Of a DNA stretch of 64,000 nt, positions 51,895-61,175 are shown piece after piece. The position numbers and the translations under genes were made by a program. Source of the DNA: Phycisphaerales bacterium (GTDB lineage Bacteria; Planctomycetota; Phycisphaerae; Phycisphaerales; JAGLTS01); the NCBI GenBank assembly GCA_023135165.1, contig JAGLTS010000028.1:1-64000 (forward strand). The letters run 5' to 3'. The notes below the pieces were generated by a model. The model saw only the letters and a list, made by a program, of their open reading frames with translations. It did not search any database and was not told the DNA's origin. Position 1 is the first letter of the stretch. Each line of letters begins with the position of its first letter.

Positions 51895-51918
51895 GCGCAG
51901 CCGCGCCCCGTTGTAGCC

Positions 51919-51956
51919 AAAGCCCAGGGAAAGCTTTCCCTGGGCTTTCCATTCGG
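51919..51956. repeat. REP-like element copy 1 (30-bp perfect palindrome aaagcccagggaaagctttccctgggcttt plus ccattcgg), inverted relative to copy 2
   Basis: Perfect inverted repeat. Flank ccattcgg is the reverse complement of the ccgaatgg flank of copy 2. Confidence 0.7.
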
Positions 51957-51968
51957 TAGCATGCCGAC

Positions 51969-52496
51969 ATGGAACCGTGGAACAACTGGTATCACTGCAC
52001 GGGAAACACGTATGGCACATGGCTTCCCGGAGATCCACGCGGCTGGCGCGCCAGGCATCATCGGTTGCACGTGGAAGGCGACTACAAGAACCCACCCACG
52101 CCCGGCGAACACGCAGCGTTGCACGAGCGGTCGCGGTCGAAGCTCACACGGCAACCGGTGTATCTCGGCTCGCGCGCTCAGGCGATCGCATGTGATGCCA
52201 TTGTGGAGAAGCTGAGCGAGAAGGCGGTCGAGATCGGCGCGGTTGCGGTGGATGACCACCACCTTCACGTTGTGGGAAGGTTCATGGATCGCAATCCGCG
52301 GCGCTGGATCGGGCTTGCGAAGAAGAACAGTGCGTGGGCGGTACGTGAGGCAGACCTGGCGCCGCGCGGCGGCATCTGGGCGGTGCGAGCGCAGTGCCTT
52401 CCAATCGCGGATGAGGTGCATTGGCGGACGGCCGTTGCGTATGTGCTACGACATGGCGAGCGAGGCGCCGCCGTATGGAGTCCGGACCACGCATGA
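51969..52496 (+). CDS. IS200-like / REP-associated tyrosine transposase (RAYT, Y1 HuH transposase family)
   Basis: HuH motif HLHVV. C-terminal W...AVAYVLRHG resembles the RAYT Y(I/V)xxNPVKHG catalytic-Tyr region. N-terminal WYHCTGNTYGTWLPGD. Flanked by inverted REP palindromes. Confidence 0.65.
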   Translation: MEPWNNWYHCTGNTYGTWLPGDPRGWRARHHRLHVEGDYKNPPTPGEHAALHERSRSKLTRQPVYLGSRAQAIACDAIVEKLSEKAVEIGAVAVDDHHLHVVGRFMDRNPRRWIGLAKKNSAWAVREADLAPRGGIWAVRAQCLPIADEVHWRTAVAYVLRHGERGAAVWSPDHA

Positions 52497-52499
52497 CGT

Positions 52500-52573
52500 C
52501 CGAATGGAAAGCCCAGGGAAAGCTTTCCCTGGGCTTTGATGTCATTCTGTCACGCACCGATGAGAAACCCCGC
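52500..52573. repeat. REP-like element copy 2 (ccgaatgg + 30-bp palindrome + 36-nt tail gatgtcattctgtcacgcaccgatgagaaaccccgc)
   Basis: Lies 3 nt after the transposase stop codon. Confidence 0.7.
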
Positions 52574-52626
52574 GGCAGAACAACGGTTCGTGACGTCTTG
52601 TCTTCCCGCAGTCCTGAGATACCTTT

Positions 52627-53532
52627 TCAGTCATCCTCCACGGGCGCTTCCGATGCTTGCTCTCGCATCGCCGCTTCGATGAGCTGCACGATCGCCTCCC
52701 GCTGCCCATCCGTCCTGGTCTTCATCGTATCAAGCGCTGTGTGGCCGTTCTCATCGACAGCCGCAGCATCCGCGCCGTGAGCCAGGAGCGCCTCAACAAC
52801 ACTGACATCGCTCAGCGCCGTTGCCCACATCAACGGTGTCATGCCCAGGTGATCTCTCGCGTTCGGATCCGCGCCTGCGTCGAGCAGCAATATTGCGATC
52901 TCCCCGTGCTGGTAGTAGATCGCCACTACGAGCGTATGATCTCTCCACCACCGCTGATAGTTGCCGGCTGCGATATCGTATTCGATGTTCGGATTCATTC
53001 CGAAGCGAAGTTGGCGCGCCACGCCCTTGGTGTCACCTGCCATGACAAGGCCGAACAAGGGCTGCGGATCGCGCTGCGCCGCTGGATTCACCAGGCTCAC
53101 CCCACCGCGCAACGTGACATGCACAAGAATCAACACGACAAGTAGACGCGGAGTCACCAGCGTGCGGTGTCGAACTTCGCGCAGTCTCGCGGTCGTGCGC
53201 GGCATGTGCATCCACACCACGAGTGCGAGCAGCCCGAGCATGTGAAGCAGCCGCAAGGCGATGGCGATCACCTCGCCCGGCTCCCACCACCAGTAGGCGA
53301 TCGCCCGATTCACATCACGCACACCGGTCAACGTCAGTTCGGCCAGCGCGAGAAGCACAGCGATTGTGATGCTGTGCCAGAGCAGGCGATTGCCTCGTGC
53401 GCCGGCCGCCGCCAATGCGCCCGCTTCATCCGTCCGCCAACCACATTCGGAACACGTGCCGCTCCCCTCAACCTCCAGTGGGTAATCGCAGTTGGGACAA
53501 CGATCGGGCACGGTCAACCTCCACTTGCCCAA
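52627..53532 (-). CDS. Ankyrin-repeat protein with N-terminal zinc-ribbon and transmembrane segments
   Basis: CPNCDYPLE...CSECGW zinc ribbon. Several TM helices. C-terminal ankyrin repeats (GMTPLMWATALSDVSVVEALLAHGADAAAVDENGHTAL). TTG start as read. Confidence 0.6.
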   Translation of the reverse strand: MGKWRLTVPDRCPNCDYPLEVEGSGTCSECGWRTDEAGALAAAGARGNRLLWHSITIAVLLALAELTLTGVRDVNRAIAYWWWEPGEVIAIALRLLHMLGLLALVVWMHMPRTTARLREVRHRTLVTPRLLVVLILVHVTLRGGVSLVNPAAQRDPQPLFGLVMAGDTKGVARQLRFGMNPNIEYDIAAGNYQRWWRDHTLVVAIYYQHGEIAILLLDAGADPNARDHLGMTPLMWATALSDVSVVEALLAHGADAAAVDENGHTALDTMKTRTDGQREAIVQLIEAAMREQASEAPVEDD

Positions 53533-53583
53533 GGCACGACGCCATCATCGCAGATCTCGCCCTCCTCCGCTCCCGGACATGCC

Positions 53584-53648
53584 AAAGCCAGGGAAAGCTT
53601 TCCCTGGGCTTTGATGTCATTCTGTCACGCACCGATGAGAAACCCCGC
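53584..53648. repeat. REP-like element copy 3 (palindrome with 1-nt deletion in left arm plus the same 36-nt tail)
   Basis: gccaaagccagggaaagctttccctgggctttgatgtcattctgtcacgcaccgatgagaaaccccgc. Confidence 0.7.
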
Positions 53649-53664
53649 AGCGCGGGCTGCGGGG
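53643..53664 (-). terminator. Candidate intrinsic terminator downstream of dnaK (hairpin ccccgcagc-gcgg-gctgcgggg followed by TTTCTC on the transcribed strand)
   Basis: 8-bp GC stem 45 nt after the dnaK stop, followed by a weak U-tract. The adjacent REP palindrome could add a second hairpin. Confidence 0.35.
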
Positions 53665-53708: not shown

Positions 53709-55628
53709 CTACTTGTCTTCCTTCACTTCGTAGTCGGCGTCGATGACATCGTCGTCGCCTGACGCTGCTGCGCTGACGCCTTCCTCGTCGGGCGCTTCGG
53801 TTGCTGCGCCTGCCTCGGCTTGCTTGGCGGCTTCGGCTTCGTAAATCACCTTGCCGAGCTCCATCGCTTCCTTGTTCAGGTTCTCAAGCGCTGCGTCGAT
53901 CGCTGACTTGTCATCGCCCTTGAGCGCTGTTTCAAGATTGCTGATCGCCGACTCGATGTTGCCGCGAACGTCCGGCGTGACCTTTTCGCCGTACTCCTCG
54001 AGCGACTTGCGCGTCTGGTAGATGATCTGCTCAGCCTTGTTCTTCGTGTCAATCAACTCGCGCCGGGCGCTGTCCTCTGCGGAGTGCTCCTCCGCTTCCT
54101 TCTTCATCCGGTTGATCTCATCGCTGCTCAGGCCTGACGAGCCGGTGATCTTGATGTTCTGGCTCTTGCTCGTCTTCTGATCGGTCGCGGTGACGGTGAG
54201 GATGCCGTTGGCGTCGATGGCGAACTCGACCTCGATCTGCGGCATACCGCGCGGCGAGGGCGGGATGTCGGTCAACTCGAACCTGCCGAGCGTGCGGTTG
54301 TCCTGCGCGAAGTCGCGCTCGCCCTGCAGCACATGGATCGACACCGCGGTCTGACTGTCAGCAGCGGTCGAGAACGTCTCTTTCTTGGATGTCGGGATCG
54401 TGGTGTTGCGTTCGATGAGCTTGGTCATCACGCCGCCGAGCGTTTCGACGCCGAGCGAGAGCGGGGTCACATCCAGCAGCAGCACATCCTTGACATCACC
54501 TTGCAAGACGCCGCCCTGGATCGCAGCGCCGACGGCGACAACCTCATCGGGGTTGATCGACCTGTTCGGCTCCCTGCCGAAGACTTCGCGGCAGATCTCC
54601 TGCACCTTCGGGATGCGGATCGACCCGCCGACGAGCACGACCTCCTGGATATCGCCCTGGCTGACCTTCGCATCGCGCATCGCCTGCTCGCAAGGCCCGC
54701 GCAGACGGTCGAAGAGGTCGCTGCACAAGGACTCGAACTTGGCCCGCGTGACGGTGAGCTGCATGTGCTTCGGACCGCTCTGGTCCGCTGTGATGAACGG
54801 CAGGTTAACGGTCGTCTCCTGCATCGTCGAAAGCTCGCACTTGGCCTTCTCCGCAGCCTCCTTGAGGCGTTGCAGCGCCATCGCGTCGCTGCGGATGTCG
54901 ATGCCTTCCTGCTTGCGGAACTCCTCAGCGAGGTGATCGAGAATGCGCTGGTCGAAGTCGTCACCGCCGAGATGGCCGTCGCCGTTGGATGCGAGGACTT
55001 CAAAGACGCCGTCGCCGACATCGAGGATGGAGATGTCGAATGTTCCGCCGCCGAGGTCGAAGACGATGATCTTCTCGCTGGTCTTCTTGTCCAGGCCGTA
55101 GGCGAGTGCGGCAGCGGTCGGCTCGTTGATGATGCGCTCGACGGTGAGGCCTGCGATTTCGCCCGCCTGTTTCGTCGCGGTGCGTTGTGCATCGTTGAAG
55201 TACGCGGGGACGGTGATGACAGCCCGATCGACCTTCTCGCCGAGGTAGTCCTCAGCGGTCTTCTTGAGATCCTGGAGGATCATCGCGCTGATTTCCTGGG
55301 GCGTGTACTCCTTGCCGTCCGCCTTGACCTTGACGAGTTCATTGGGGCCGCCGACGACTTCGTAGGGGACGATCTTCTCTTCGGAGTGGACCTCGTCGTG
55401 CCGCCGACCCATGAAGCGTTTGATCGAGAAGATGGTGGCCTTGGGGTTGGTGATCTGCTGGTGCTTGGCCTGCTGGCCGACGAGTCGGTCGCCCTTGTCG
55501 GTGAACGCGACGACGGAGGGTGTGATCCGCTGGCCGGCGGAGTTGATCAGCACCTTGGGCTGATCGCCCTCCATGACGGCGACGACGGAGTTGGTCGTTC
55601 CCAGGTCGATTCCAATGATCTTGCTCAT
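53709..55628 (-). CDS. dnaK: Molecular chaperone DnaK (Hsp70)
   Basis: [26 protein letters not shown], ...[21 protein letters not shown]. Full-length 639 aa. Confidence 0.95.
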
Positions 55629-55884
55629 CTGTCAGCCTCGTAAGCGTGAGCGCCGCGCGTGGCGTCGGCGGCGCATGGGTCTTGGTGTACATCCACCACG
55701 CAGGAGTAAGGGCAACGCCGATGCCAGAACGGATCGGCCCTGATGCGGTCGTGAGGCGGGTTCAGGGCGGGCGCATCTGCCGGTTTGGCAGGACCGGCCG
55801 CGCCGGGACGCCGCCCGGGCACAGGCGGGCCTGCTGCGTTTCGTGCGGCCGCGCTTCCCTTCGGGGCGCGGCTACACTGCGGAC

Positions 55885-57405
55885 ATGACCGGGTCGTACG
55901 ACTGGATCGCGTGGACGGCCGGTGGGTTCGTCGGCCTGCTCGGCGTGTACTTGGCGCTGCGGGCGCTTCTTGTCGACGGATTCAGACGGCGCTGGCACAA
56001 GCAGCGGCGCTGCCCCAAGTGCTGGTACGACATGCGCCACACGCCGGGGGCGACGTGCAGCGAATGTGGGTTCACAGCCAAGCGGGAACGTCAGCTTTTC
56101 AAAGCGCGACGCCGATGGCGCTGGGTGGCGGTCGCGCTTCTCCTCATAGCGATCGGTTGGGGCGGCGGCGTGTATCCCAAAGCGCGGCGCGACGGCTGGC
56201 GCTCCGTTGTGCCGACGACGGTGCTGATCGCAGCCCTGCCCTGGTTGGATGAACCAGAGACCCCGATTGAGGGAGGACTCACACGCGTGGGGCCGCAAGG
56301 TGCCACCAAGTTGCGTTCGCTTCACAGCGAACTCACGTGCCGCGCAAAGGACGACCTGCTCTGGGATTGGCAGTGGCACTGGCTGGCCCGGCGCTCCTGC
56401 GCGGGCGATGCTGCTCGGCGTCCACCATCGCAGCGCTGGCACGACACGTATCGACGCCTCCTGAACAGCGCCATAGGGGCTGGACACCCTTGGGACGACA
56501 GGATGCTGCCCGCCCTGGCTGTCGCCGACATCGCCGTGCGCCACCGATGGCCCGCGGACCAACCTCTTCAAGCACGATGCATCATCGAGAGGCGTTACTC
56601 GCACAAGAGGCTGGAGATAAACGAGCTACTCGTTCAAATCGCCCCACGCATCCCTGGCTTGTCGCCGGTGGAGAAGCGCCTCTCCGAGTATCTCTTCTCC
56701 GCGCGTTCCAACGACTACGTCTGGCGCTTGCCTGCTCGATCGTGCTGGCAGGATCCCACACCCGGAGAACTCACCACGCTCGGCTCGGTGCCGTGCGGTA
56801 CGACACACATCGATTTCGACATCAGCTTTGGGCAGATCGACGAGGAGACTGGTATCGCAGAGCCCATCTGGTCGACCGTGGTGCGCACGCCGATTGACGT
56901 GGTCGAGACAACGGCGGATGCTCTGGTTGCGGTCCAAGCACCGGCTGTCGAGGAGGCGATTCGCACAGAGCTCGATCTCGACGAGTGGTACATCGTGCCC
57001 CGCGCCATCGGTTTCGAGCATGCCATCGCGGCGCTTGCCGACCTTGCCCCAATCACGCTGGCGGTGACGATCGAGTTCGTGGATGGCGAGGAAGTGATGT
57101 TCTCGGCAAGCGCCTGGTGGTCGGTTCGCCGCGCACCCGACAGTACGGGGGCGGCTGATGTGGCCGTCACACCAGCGACGCCTTGGGTGTGGCTGCGCAT
57201 GACACACGAGACAAGTCGCCCGATCTGGACCCGTGGCCGCGCTGGGTCGGACATAGTCTCGCTACGGATTCGCAGTGATCCGGCGGTGGCGCTGCGCAAC
57301 TTCGACTGTGACCGCTACTGGGTCGGCGAGGTCACCATTCCACTGAGGTGGTCGGACGAGGGCCAGCTCGTGCCGGACCAAGGCGCACGCGGCGGCGGCG
57401 AGTAG
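55885..57405 (+). CDS. Zinc-ribbon two-TM membrane protein, paralog A (unknown function)
   Basis: Start at internal ATG 55885 (MTGSYDWIAWTAGGFVGLLGV...). TM1, then CPKCWYDMRHTPGATCSEC zinc ribbon, then TM2, then a large extracytoplasmic domain. Confidence 0.55.
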   Translation: MTGSYDWIAWTAGGFVGLLGVYLALRALLVDGFRRRWHKQRRCPKCWYDMRHTPGATCSECGFTAKRERQLFKARRRWRWVAVALLLIAIGWGGGVYPKARRDGWRSVVPTTVLIAALPWLDEPETPIEGGLTRVGPQGATKLRSLHSELTCRAKDDLLWDWQWHWLARRSCAGDAARRPPSQRWHDTYRRLLNSAIGAGHPWDDRMLPALAVADIAVRHRWPADQPLQARCIIERRYSHKRLEINELLVQIAPRIPGLSPVEKRLSEYLFSARSNDYVWRLPARSCWQDPTPGELTTLGSVPCGTTHIDFDISFGQIDEETGIAEPIWSTVVRTPIDVVETTADALVAVQAPAVEEAIRTELDLDEWYIVPRAIGFEHAIAALADLAPITLAVTIEFVDGEEVMFSASAWWSVRRAPDSTGAADVAVTPATPWVWLRMTHETSRPIWTRGRAGSDIVSLRIRSDPAVALRNFDCDRYWVGEVTIPLRWSDEGQLVPDQGARGGGE

Positions 57406-57510
57406 CGCGAGACGGATGCGGGTTGTCGGCCGGACGTGCATCGGCCCGAGACGGGCCGGCTCTGTTTCGTGCGGTCGCGCTTCCCTTCGGGGCGCGGGTA
57501 CACTGCGGAC

Positions 57511-59025
57511 ATGACCGGGTCGTACGACTGGATCGCGTGGACGGCCGGTGGGTTCGTCGGCCTGCTCGGCGTGTGCCTCGCACTGTGGGCGCTGTTTGTC
57601 GACGGATTCAGACGACGTTGGCACAGGCAGCGGCGCTGCCCGAAGTGCTGGTACGACATGCGCCACACGCCCGGAGCAACGTGCAGCGAGTGCGGGTTCA
57701 CAGCCAAGCGCGAACGTCAGCTTTTCAAAGCGCGACGGCGATGGCGCTGGGCGGCGGTCGCGGTTCTCCTCATGGGGATCGGTTGGGGCGGCGGCGTGTA
57801 TCCCAAGGCGCGGCGCGACGGCTGGCGCTCTGTCGTGCCGACGACGGTGCTGATCGCAGCGCTGCCCTGGTTGGACCCACCACGGAACCAACAGCGTTCT
57901 GTGCAGTGGCTACTGCCACCGCAGCCCTCCCTCTTGAACGAGCTTGACGATCGCGCAGCACCACAGAATCAGCTTTGGGACTGGCAGTGGCGGTGGCTGA
58001 TCGACCGGGCGTACACGGGTGATGCAGCACGCAGGTCCCCCTCAGAGCAATGGCACAGCAAGTACGGGCGACTCATGTGCTGGGCCGATGTAAGCGGCCA
58101 CCTCGACGATGATCCGCGCCGCCAAGAGAGAATACTGCCTTGCCTCGCCATCGCTGACATCGCCGTGCGCGATCGCTGGCCTGCCGAACTGCCCCTGCAA
58201 GCCCGATGGGTCATCCGTAGCGGGTGGCCCCTCTGGGACAGCACGATGAACGAGTTGACCGTTCGAATCACACCCAGAGACCCGGTGTTGTCACCGATCG
58301 AACAGCACCTCACCCCTCCTTTCCTTGCCAGCCTTGACTCCGAGGCCTTGGGGATCTCCACGCGAGGATACCGGCTGGATCGATGCTGGGAACTTGCGAC
58401 ACTCGGTTTGTTGCCGGTCGGCACGACGCACATCGACTTCGACATCACGTTCGAGCAGACCGGCGAGGCTGCGGGTGTCGCCATGCCCCTCTGGTCCACC
58501 GTCGTTCGACGGCCAATCGAGGTGGTCGAGACGATCCAGGATGTGCTCGTTGCGGTTCCGTCACCGGCCGTTGACGAGGCGATCCGGACCGTATTTCAGA
58601 TCCTCGACCGCTGGGAACAGATTCCGGGCTACATCGGCTTTCAGCATGTTCTCGCGGAGCTTGCCGACCTTGCGCCGATCACGCTTGCGGTGACGATCGA
58701 GTACGTTCACGGTGACGAGGTCCTGTGCTCAATGAGCGTCTGGTGGGACGTGCAGCGGGCGGCAGCTGGGGCAGTGAGTGCGCAGGTTGCGCCAGAGGAG
58801 TATCGCGTGCGTTGGCGGATGACGGATCGCGTCAAGCAACGAATCAGGGCACACGCTCGGGAGGGTCCCGGAGCGGTGTCGCTGCGGATTCGCAGTGATC
58901 CGGCGGTAGCGCTGCGCAACTTCGATTGTGACCGCTACTGGGTCGGCGAGGTCACGATTCCATTGAGGTGGTCGGACGGTGGCCGGCTTGTGCCGGACCA
59001 AGGCGCACGCGGCGACGGTGAGTAG
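57511..59025 (+). CDS. Zinc-ribbon two-TM membrane protein, paralog B (tandem duplicate of 55885..57405)
   Basis: The N-terminal about 130 aa and C-terminal about 48 aa are near-identical to paralog A. The central about 330 aa are diverged. Confidence 0.55.
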   Translation: MTGSYDWIAWTAGGFVGLLGVCLALWALFVDGFRRRWHRQRRCPKCWYDMRHTPGATCSECGFTAKRERQLFKARRRWRWAAVAVLLMGIGWGGGVYPKARRDGWRSVVPTTVLIAALPWLDPPRNQQRSVQWLLPPQPSLLNELDDRAAPQNQLWDWQWRWLIDRAYTGDAARRSPSEQWHSKYGRLMCWADVSGHLDDDPRRQERILPCLAIADIAVRDRWPAELPLQARWVIRSGWPLWDSTMNELTVRITPRDPVLSPIEQHLTPPFLASLDSEALGISTRGYRLDRCWELATLGLLPVGTTHIDFDITFEQTGEAAGVAMPLWSTVVRRPIEVVETIQDVLVAVPSPAVDEAIRTVFQILDRWEQIPGYIGFQHVLAELADLAPITLAVTIEYVHGDEVLCSMSVWWDVQRAAAGAVSAQVAPEEYRVRWRMTDRVKQRIRAHAREGPGAVSLRIRSDPAVALRNFDCDRYWVGEVTIPLRWSDGGRLVPDQGARGDGE

Positions 59026-59094
59026 CGCGAGACGGATGCGGGTTGTCGGCCGGACGTGCATCGGCCCGAGACGGGCCGGCTCTGTTTCGTGCGG

Positions 59095-60954
59095 TCAGCC
59101 GAGGTTCATCGTCATGAGGAACTCGCCGTTGCTCTTGGTCTTGCCGAGCCTGCTCTTCATCAGCTCCATCGCCTCGACGACGTTCATGTCGCTGAGCACT
59201 TTCCGCAAGCGATAAACAAGCTCAAGCTCCTTAGGCTGAAGCAGCAACTCTTCGCGGCGTGTGCCGGACGCTGCGATGTCGATGGCGGGCCAGATGCGTT
59301 TCTCGACGAGCTTGCGGTCCAGGTGCAGCTCGGAGTTACCGGTGCCCTTGAACTCCTCGAAGATGACCTCATCCATCTTGGAACCTGTGTCGACGAGCGC
59401 GGTAGCGAGGATCGTCAAGCTGCCGCCCCGTTCGATGGCGCGTGCCGACCCGAAGAACTTCTTGGGACGTTGCAGCGCGTTGGAGTCCAGGCCGCCGGTC
59501 ATGATCTTGCCCGAGTGCGGCATCTCAGCGTTGTAGGCTCGGGCAAGTCGTGTGATCGAGTCGAGCAGGATCACGACATCATCACCGAACTCGACCATAC
59601 GCCGAGCTTTGCCGATCACCATCTCAGTGACCTGCACATGCCTGCTCGAGTGCTCATCAAACGTCGAAGCGATGACTTCAACGCTGTCGGGCGTGTGGCG
59701 GCGGAAGTCCGTGACTTCCTCCGGCCGTTCGTCGATGAGCAGAACAATGACGTGCACCTCGGGGTGGTTCGTCGAGATCGCGTTGGCCATCTTCTGGAGG
59801 AGGATGGTCTTACCCGTGCGAGGCGGCGCGACGATGAGCGCTCGCTGGCCGTAGCCGATCGGCGTGACGAGGTCGATGATGCGCGTCTCGATGATGTTCG
59901 GTTCGGTTTCGAGGGTGAAGCGCTTGTCGGGATGCAGCGGTATCATGTCCTCGAAGATCGGGAGTTCAAGGATCGCTTCGGGCGGGCGGCCGTTGATGTT
60001 GTCGACGCGGAGCAGCGCGAAGTAGCGTTCGGACTCCTTCGGCGGGCGAACGAGGCCCTGGATGATGCATCCCTTTCGCAGGCCGAACCGTCTGATCTGA
60101 CTCGGGCTGACGTAGATGTCATCCGGTGACGGCAGGTAGGAGTACATCGGGCTGCGGAGGAAGCCGAAGCCGTCGGGGAGGACTTCGAGCGTCCCCTCGC
60201 CGAACATAAGCCCCTGCTTGGCGATGCGCGACTTGAGGATCTTGAAGATGAGATCTTGCTTGTGGAGTTTGCCGAGATCGGTGAGGCCTTCCTCATGGGC
60301 AACCGTGTGGAGATCATCGATCTTCATCCGCTGCAGTTCGGAGAGGTGGATCGCATCCTTCTTGACCTCTTCGTAGCGGTCGCCGATCTCCGCAGCGAGT
60401 TCAGCGGCCTCGCGTTCGAGCTGCTCATCGCTTGGGAGTTCGGATTCGAGGATGATCGGCGCATCGGGCGAAGGCCGGTAGCCGCTGCTGCCGCCGCCGC
60501 CTGACTTCTTGCGCTTCTTGCGCTTCTTCTTCTTGCCAGAGGGCTGTTGCTGCTGCTGCTGTTGTTGTTGTTGCTGCTGGCGATGGCCTTGCGGCTGCTT
60601 TCGCTCATCCTGGCGCTGCGCGGGTGCGGGTGGCGTCTCTCTCGCTTCGTCTGGTGCTGCCGAGTCATCTGCCCGACTGCCGGACGAGGCGTCACCTTGC
60701 GATGGCGTATCTCGGGCATCCGTCGGGGTCGGCTGCGAGGCCTCGGCCTCGGCCCGGCCATCCGCAGCCGGCTTGGACGCAGCCCGGCTCTTGGATTCGG
60801 GCGGCGCCTCCTCGATCACCGCTGATGCGGTACCCGCGTCACCGGCGGCGGATGTCGCGGTCTTCTTGGTGGTTCGGCGGCGACGAGGCTTGCTCGCTGC
60901 GGGGGTCTTGACTGCTTCGTCCTTCATTTCTTTCGTGGACGACTTGGTGGCCAT
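59095..60954 (-). CDS. rho: Transcription termination factor Rho with extended K/R/Q-rich N-terminal insertion
   Basis: Start at ATG 60954 ([20 protein letters not shown]). C-terminal RecA-like ATPase ([24 protein letters not shown], ...[12 protein letters not shown]). The N-terminus has (Q)13 and a [10 protein letters not shown] tract. Confidence 0.9.
60544..60580 (-). repeat. CAG/CAA trinucleotide microsatellite encoding poly-Gln in rho
   Basis: ctgttgctgctgctgctgttgttgttgttgctgctgg on the plus strand. Confidence 0.7.
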
Positions 60955-61175
60955 AGCTTGTCTTCCTTCATCGGCAACGTGTGGGTTGCTCGCTCGTTGG
61001 CGCGGCTCTCGGCTCATCAGGCATTTGTGAGCCGCAGCCGATGTTGACACCGGTCAGCGCTTCCTGCACGTACGTGATTTCACTGGGGAAAGCGTCGAAT
61101 CCAAACTTGGGTGAGACACCCCAACTCAGCGGGACGTGCACTCACATTCCACGCGGACGGGTCGGCATGGGCACT

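Follow-up and report, generated by a model that had tools for sequence, protein, structure and literature searches.

A tandem pair of zinc-ribbon membrane proteins with alike ends and a diverged core in a Phycisphaerales genome

The 64,000-nucleotide (nt) window analysed here, the forward strand of a stretch from a Phycisphaerales metagenome-assembled genome (MAG), contains two adjacent genes for paralogous zinc-ribbon membrane proteins. These genes form a genuine tandem duplication, in which one transcription unit composed of a leader, a gene and a terminator-like hairpin has been doubled. Gene 1 (KAS72_05585, P0001; 55885-57405, plus strand) encodes a protein of 506 amino acids (aa) and gene 2 (KAS72_05590, P0002; 57511-59025, plus strand), its paralogue, one of 504 aa; both open reading frames (ORFs) are 100% identical to the deposited proteins. 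The origin of their alike ends and diverged core is best explained, with a probability of about 0.6, by an old tandem duplication whose ends have been kept alike jointly by gene conversion and purifying selection. Of the overall interpretation given in the original prediction, the duplication, the zinc-ribbon paralogues, the contrast of alike ends and diverged core, and the conversion hold up, while the diversifying core and the stub of a third unit do not.

The duplicated unit and its regional divergence

The predicted arrangement of two adjacent genes in a tandem duplication agrees with the ORFs and with the repeat finder, which gave a direct repeat over 55801-59096 whose period is about 1626 nt, the individual matches being spaced 1620-1629 nt apart. 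Within it, 55801-56100 matches 57427-57726 at 89%, 57256-57476 matches 58876-59096 at 95% over 221 nt, and three mid-unit pieces match between the repeat units at 73-74%. The similarity of unit 1 to unit 2 starts at 55801, and the left edge of the repeat is formed by a diverged 50-nt copy of the hairpin-containing flank (X1; 55801-55850, plus strand), identical at 35 of 50 positions to 57427-57476 and to 59047-59096. The 5' leader of gene 1 (55851-55884, plus strand) follows and is identical at 33 of 34 positions to that of gene 2 (57477-57510, plus strand). A GC-rich stem-loop, GCGCTTCCCTTCGGGGCGC, stands immediately 5' of the gene 1 ATG in this leader, and the gene 2 leader has a stem-loop of the same kind; the hairpin is seen in the predicted fold, the fold z-scores of leader and flank being only -0.8 to -1.1 and non-significant.

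Directly after the stop codons come the 3' flanks of gene 1 (57406-57476, plus strand) and gene 2 (59026-59096, plus strand), which are identical at 71 of 71 positions. In both, the terminator scan detected a terminator-like hairpin, TCGGCCCGAGACGGGCCGG (57441-57459 and 59061-59079), followed by CTCTGTTTCG. The layout is X-leader-gene-X-leader-gene-X, with the hairpin element X in three copies. The stretch at rho had been described in the original prediction as a stub of about 70 bp from a third unit. The 71 nt are real and their identity runs up to rho, ending 2 nt into its stop codon (59095-59097), but they are better read as the duplicated 3' flank of the gene with its terminator-like hairpin; the third hairpin element, the one that has diverged, sits upstream of gene 1. 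The flank pieces of 33-34 nt are confined to the repeat positions in the window, where shuffled sequences gave an expectation of 0, and the idea that the flank hairpin is a genome-wide repeat was rejected because within the window it was found at these positions alone. An Rfam scan of 55600-59200 returned no match.

The two proteins share 63% identity over their full length (BLASTP), and this value is very unevenly distributed. In the codon-aware alignment of gene 1 and gene 2, to which the following regional values also refer, identity reaches 93% over residues 1-122 and 94% over the last 49 residues (458-506), as against 51% in the core (residues 123-457). The near-identity claimed for the N-terminal 130 or so residues is thus real but shorter, at 122 aa, and that of the last 48 or so residues was described correctly. 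The core, called only loosely similar, is indeed diverged, yet this wording undersold a likeness that can be aligned over the whole length. Proper alignment does not make the core as conserved as the ends, which had been named as the result that would point to a simple recent duplication.

The synonymous divergence (dS, Nei-Gojobori) follows the same division. It amounts to 0.23 in the N-terminal region and 0.27 in the C-terminal region, about one fifth of the core value of 1.20, and the nonsynonymous divergence (dN) is 0.034, 0.033 and 0.43, respectively, giving dN/dS ratios of 0.15, 0.12 and 0.36. Because the core dS is saturated, at about 1.2, the duplication must be regarded as old. A codon test counting only the codons for residues identical in both copies, which removes amino-acid constraint, led to the same division: synonymous differences were found at 26 of 147 such codons in the ends (18%) and at 79 of 151 in the core (52%; Fisher p = 3.5e-10).

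The transitions between these regions are sharp. In 60-nt sliding windows, two plateaus of 0.85-1.00 identity are separated by values of 0.4-0.78. The first is a putative conversion tract covering the leader and codons 1 to about 120 (55830-56245, plus strand; partner 57456-57871), and near 56245 some 60 nt suffice for identity to fall from 0.93 to 0.38. The second, likewise a putative conversion tract, consists of the last 50 or so codons and the 71-nt flank (57256-57476, plus strand; partner 58876-59096), with a jump from 0.48 to 0.97 near 57255. Identical runs of 76-77 nt link the units, the longest (77 nt) lying in the 3' tract; they are the remaining substrate for further unequal recombination, in line with the role foreseen for the repeat.

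Such a picture could in principle come from an old duplication without any conversion, the ends being alike purely from stronger purifying selection than in the core. Part of the pattern is indeed explained by purifying selection, because the ends coincide with motifs conserved throughout the family: the same regions are conserved down to 24-33% overall identity, an identity of about 46% remains between the N-terminal modules of unrelated members where the rest falls below 25%, and the dN/dS of 0.12-0.15 at the ends points the same way. However, selection on the protein does not produce a five-fold reduction in dS, and it leaves unexplained the difference in codon usage for identical residues, the identical bases of the non-coding flanks (71/71 and 33/34) and the abruptness of the identity steps. 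Selection at the protein level is therefore insufficient, since it predicts neither the low synonymous divergence, nor the flank identity, nor the sharp boundaries, and as the sole cause it was already disfavoured and is unlikely. Gene conversion, or an equivalent recombinational exchange, is favoured because it predicts all three. Three features of concerted evolution are present, namely direct-orientation paralogues in the same genome, segments of low dS and discrete tract boundaries, and the conversion at the ends proposed in the original prediction is accordingly supported.

A third paralogue (P0003, L001:6001-7542), located on another contig of the same genome, extends this observation. 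Compared with the tandem pair, its N-terminal module has a dS of 0.26-0.31 and its core a dS of 1.2-1.4, with an intermediate value of 0.57-0.69 at the C-terminus. Its flanks share only about 17 nt with those of the pair, just 5' of the ATG, and are otherwise unrelated. The low dS of the N-terminal module, next to a high core dS and so little likeness of the flanks, indicates that exchange of this module reaches beyond the tandem pair.

The same mosaic of dS with sharp boundaries would also be expected if the duplication were recent and the central 1 kb or so had been swapped in as a cassette from divergent alleles or paralogues, or by horizontal transfer. Shuffling of modules does occur in the family, in which the N-terminal module is found joined to unrelated C-termini. 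On the other hand, no outside donor is visible: the three cores of the source genome are mutually closest (39-51% identity, as against no more than 33% to anything else), and the closest protein outside this genome is 28-32% identical. For the dispersed third copy, with its young N-terminal module lacking shared flanks, a short conversion tract is the simpler explanation. Replacement of the core is therefore also an unlikely account.

The conserved ends and variable middle had further suggested a polymorphic surface protein. On this reading, the core would be driven apart either through positive selection or through a targeted mutator, for instance a diversity-generating retroelement (DGR) or silent cassettes. 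Apart from the layout itself, this suggestion finds some backing in two beta-sandwich domains predicted to be extracytoplasmic and in a few 40-codon windows with dN > dS against the third paralogue (alignment columns 241-300). Nevertheless, the core dN/dS is 0.36, and the windows in question sit in loops with indels and a model confidence (pLDDT) below 50, in which the alignment cannot be trusted. No sign of diversifying selection was found in the core by a test that is weak, given saturated dS and three sequences. The most variable stretches of the core are linkers and loops of low model confidence. DNA divergence between the cores amounts to 39%, and 87 C/G differences, 161 transitions, 214 transversions and 28 gap codons were counted, so every substitution class is represented; divergence of this kind over about 1 kb, with no adenine bias, rules out mutagenesis of the DGR type, directed at adenines, and the core was rejected as a DGR target and as a product of hypermutation. 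The repeat finder gave the tandem units alone and no DGR template repeat, no scan for a reverse transcriptase having been made. A core diversified by selection or by a dedicated mechanism is thus distinctly improbable, and this part of the original prediction is not sustained.

Systems of antigenic variation such as Anaplasma msp2, Borrelia vlsE and Neisseria pilE/pilS also have conserved ends around a variable centre, with gene conversion as the engine, and they operate with one expression site and promoterless partial cassettes. In the present pair, by contrast, both copies are complete, each with its own leader and terminator-like hairpin, and the recent exchange concerns the ends and not the centre. 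Silent-cassette variation was rejected, as no truncated promoterless copy was found and both copies are full-length. The closest described analogue of the pattern is provided by the babA, babB and babC paralogues of Helicobacter pylori, which have near-identical N- and C-terminal parts, a divergent middle thought to carry binding specificity, and ends homogenised by intragenomic gene conversion (PMC4552749, citing Pride and Blaser 2002). The Bab proteins are outer-membrane beta-barrel adhesins whose genes are dispersed, carry phase-variable CT repeats and have formed documented chimeras among strains, whereas the pair described here is tandem and predicted to be anchored in the inner membrane by a hairpin with a zinc ribbon, and no repeat-based phase switch was seen in it. 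As a descriptive class, the segmentally variable genes apply, in which conserved segments stand beside a highly variable one and which were proposed to mark domains of interaction or adaptation (Zheng, Roberts and Kasif 2004, PMC387263), although this category rests on comparison between species and implies neither tandem duplication nor conversion.

As the source is a MAG, it was also considered whether strain alleles or dispersed paralogues had been joined head to tail during assembly, or a longer array collapsed. The ends, 92-95% identical over 220-415 nt, are able to confuse short-read assemblers, and the other record with the same contig derives from the same sample. However, the cores differ so much, and by indels too, that a collapsed repeat is excluded; at the junction (57406-57510) the 3' flank passes coherently into the leader, and same-strand arrays of the family occur in 22 independent loci of other assemblies. 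An assembly artefact is therefore very unlikely.

The course of events under the reading of duplication with conversion may be reconstructed as follows. Unequal recombination between direct repeats of about 50 nt flanking a single ancestral gene most likely generated the tandem pair, and the presence of the hairpin element in three copies is proposed to result from it; a longer and older array that later lost copies is a possible alternative origin. Strong purifying selection would have held both the N-terminal module and the strand motif at the C-terminus, which are conserved family-wide, and gene conversion among the paralogues, a mechanism suggested by the pattern, would have reset the ends to a dS of about 0.25 and left the flanks 97-100% identical. 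Conversion of the N-terminal module appears to have taken in the third copy on the other contig as well, while the core probably diverged under relaxed purifying selection. This evolutionary pattern, in which the core of a tandem duplication diverges while conversion and selection keep its ends alike, is a textbook one, and no new mechanism is suggested.

Some observations speak against this reconstruction. The GC content at third codon positions is higher in the ends (0.82) than in the core (0.73), which fits GC-biased conversion; stronger codon bias could also account for it, and the low dS of the ends may owe something to such bias. Moreover, three paralogues without a close orthologue cannot formally separate converted ends from a replaced core. 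Finally, homogenisation of N-terminal modules within genomes is moderate across the family, the nearest module coming from the same genome in 25 of 82 cases, and it must be regarded as occasional rather than general.

A Planctomycetota family built on a conserved N-terminal module

Scans of both proteins against Pfam, NCBIfam and PADLOC gave no significant match, only sub-threshold zinc-ribbon noise (Pfam DZR_2, for instance, scored 13.1 bits against a cut-off of 27), and a sequence-profile search of the PDB gave nothing below E 0.1. A known anti-phage defence protein was rejected as an identity, no PADLOC family matching at E <=0.1, and a full-text literature search on the family found nothing relevant. 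A profile built from 15 full-length members, however, retrieved 5210 clusters (50% identity) at E <=1e-3, of which 1376 at E <=1e-30. The 183 loci found in a scan of one genome per species belong nearly all to Phycisphaerae or to other Planctomycetota MAGs. Members were also seen in MAGs labelled Acidobacteriota (L003 and L080, from WYBR01, 'Vicinamibacteraceae bacterium isolate PLA1', and L018); in view of the isolate name PLA1 and of a distribution otherwise limited to Planctomycetota, the Vicinamibacteraceae label would seem to be a taxonomic mislabel and the occurrence not a real one.

The family, defined here as 'RRCPKCWY', has an architecture to which both proteins conform: a first transmembrane segment (TM1), RRCP[KR]CWYDM...C[SP]ECG, K.RRRWRW, a second transmembrane segment (TM2) and RRDGW..VPTTVLIA, followed in full-length members by a C-terminal DPxxALR..YWxGE motif. 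The two motifs quoted in the original prediction, CPKCWYDMRHTPGATCSECG and SLRIRSDPAVALRNFDCDRYWVGEVTIPLRWSD, are present as quoted. In the alignment with homologues of 24-33% identity, the invariant positions are R41, R42, C43, P44, C46, W47, Y48, C58, E60, C61, G62, R75 and R77. The invariant or nearly invariant columns cluster in the zinc ribbon and its flanks, with R153, W222, P223 and P227 lying in the ectodomain, and conservation extends to the juxtamembrane segment with VPTTVLIAALPW and to the 'DPxxALR...YWxGEVTIP' motif at the C-terminus. Since the same motifs are kept at such low identity, the conserved termini and variable middle are a property of the whole family and not a peculiarity of the pair.

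Tandem arraying is frequent without being universal, which answers in part the question of whether the family always occurs in arrays: same-strand arrays of 2-5 family genes were found in 22 of 79 related loci, often with overlapping stop and start codons. Arrays of 4-5 genes, often with such operon-like overlaps, were seen in other Planctomycetota MAGs (L008:4419-10352, L075:5992-11772 and L023:4536-13511). Among 27 comparable pairs of neighbours, all but 3 show a higher identity in the N-terminal module (37-87%) than in the rest (20-40%), and in the L008 array the modules are 78-87% identical with only 26-29% for the rest. At equal divergence of the rest, the modules are somewhat closer within than between genomes (for example, 0.55-0.66 versus 0.46-0.47; Mann-Whitney p = 3e-10), and this likeness is strongest inside one locus.

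The module is also not bound to one type of C-terminus. The full architecture is present in 63 of the 107 family ORFs that are complete, and the other 44 combine the N-terminal module with other C-termini, many of them HEAT-like repeats (Pfam HEAT matches in P0009, P0013, P0014, P0016, P0022, P0029, P0034 and P0035). A homologue search with the N-terminal module only yielded short proteins alone and nothing on C-terminal diversity. Those short proteins (P0179-P0191) contain little beyond the module of two transmembrane segments and a zinc ribbon, and some may be fragments; P0184, of 197 aa, sits on a 67.9-kb contig. The N-terminal module may tentatively be seen as an undescribed, Planctomycetota-specific handle reused on varied heads (two beta-sandwiches, HEAT repeats and others), the handles within an array being kept alike by conversion, although this broader view is on balance doubtful. 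If true, it would describe a modular repertoire of envelope receptors with a common cytoplasmic docking partner.

The family is worth recording in any case, with its thousands of clusters, its confinement to Planctomycetota, mostly Phycisphaerae, and its lack of a Pfam, NCBIfam or PDB relative. The very conserved zinc-ribbon membrane module, the interchangeable C-termini and the tendency to form arrays merit the definition of a domain. The envelope biology of Planctomycetota is poorly understood, which makes the family a sensible candidate where sensing or binding systems specific to this lineage are sought.

Architecture, topology and proposed role

The AlphaFold model of the gene 1 protein (pLDDT 77, predicted TM-score 0.65) begins with two long helices, TM1 (residues 6-37) and TM2 (residues 72-103), which enclose a small Cys-knuckle region (residues 38-71) with isolated strand residues at 41, 48, 56 and 64. 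A disordered linker (residues 121-145) and helices (residues 146-210) lead to a first beta-rich domain (residues 212-340) and to a second one (residues 348-497), mostly with pLDDT >90; both C-terminal domains are predicted to be generic beta-sandwiches. The assignment as a zinc ribbon is supported by two CxxC pairs, spaced CxxC-11-CxxC between the two transmembrane helices, the four cysteines C43, C46, C58 and C61 being invariant in 15 sequences.

The topology was deduced from hydropathy and charge in the same 15 family sequences. The median 19-residue hydropathy is 2.3 for TM1 and 1.7 for TM2, the loop between them has about 50 residues with 12-18 lysines or arginines, and the N-terminal tail has at most one such residue, 13 of the 15 sequences lacking any. 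The positive-inside rule would place the zinc ribbon in the cytoplasm and, probably, the large C-terminal part outside. The chain would thus start with a short N-terminal tail outside, cross the membrane at TM1, form the strongly basic zinc-ribbon loop of about 50 aa in the cytoplasm and return through TM2 with the conserved juxtamembrane segment; a flexible linker, a small helical region and the two beta-sandwich domains would follow outside the cytoplasmic membrane. Together with the AlphaFold model, these data suggest hairpin-anchored envelope proteins.

Our best guess is that the proteins act as membrane-anchored envelope binders or sensors, with a conserved cytoplasmic zinc-ribbon handle and a variable head. 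The conserved anchor with its zinc ribbon probably serves for docking or signalling to a partner in the cytoplasm or membrane that is itself conserved, and the variable beta-sandwich head probably binds differing envelope or external ligands, so that tandem arrays would provide a limited set of receptors or binders on a common handle. Two points count against this assignment, in which both function and topology are deduced indirectly. A third hydrophobic segment, of only about 14 residues and with a 19-residue hydropathy of 0.9, could be a short transmembrane segment, which would place the C-terminal domains in the cytoplasm and would fit the HEAT-repeat variants. In addition, no partner gene is conserved beside the family members: clustering of the ORFs of 80 loci brought out only synteny due to lineage, the neighbours being housekeeping genes (6-phosphogluconate dehydrogenase, SRAP and an ABC-F ATPase), and no functional partner.

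The predicted arrangement resembles that of zinc-binding anti-sigma (ZAS) factors in having a small cytoplasmic Cys-rich zinc module, a membrane span and a variable extracytoplasmic domain. The ZAS factors, however, carry an N-terminal HxxxCxxC domain, unlike the CxxC-11-CxxC motif between two transmembrane segments described here. A ZAS-type anti-sigma factor was rejected, as there is no zf-HC2 or RsiW-type match and the neighbours are dnaK and rho. No gene for an extracytoplasmic function (ECF) sigma factor was found adjacent to the pair in the window, and one related locus has such a gene about 4 kb away.

Neighbouring genes and elements

The pair is enclosed by two genes on the minus strand. 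The dnaK gene (53709-55628; NCBIfam DnaK, E 4.6e-298) is divergent from gene 1, as originally stated, and rho (59095-61050; NCBIfam Rho, E 2.2e-190) is convergent with gene 2. When the other sampled genomes were searched for the ancestral copy number, no family gene was found between dnaK and rho in any of them. The Rho models cover residues 235-649 only, and the N-terminal extension of about 234 aa has low-complexity parts, among them a run of 13 glutamines and a stretch rich in lysine and arginine.

On the far side of dnaK, there are three copies of a perfect palindrome of 30 nt, AAAGCCCAGGGAAAGCTTTCCCTGGGCTTT (at 51919, 52508 and 53583). A 175-aa ORF (51969-52496, plus strand) lies between the arms of a perfect inverted repeat of 39 nt (51918-51956 / 52500-52538). 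This ORF contains HLH (HUH-like) as a motif, and its NCBIfam match to the REP-associated tyrosine transposase (RAYT) is weak and below the cut-off (E 0.0025). By its sequence features, the segment 51918-52538 looks like a RAYT flanked by repetitive extragenic palindromic (REP) hairpins. Next to it, a gene at 52627-53532 (minus strand) encodes a different zinc-ribbon membrane protein, with an N-terminal CPNCDYPL...CSECGW, hydrophobic segments and ankyrin repeats (Pfam Ank, E 1.6e-10). This gene is flanked by 73-nt direct repeats (52504-52576 / 53579-53651, 93%) that include the REP-like palindrome.

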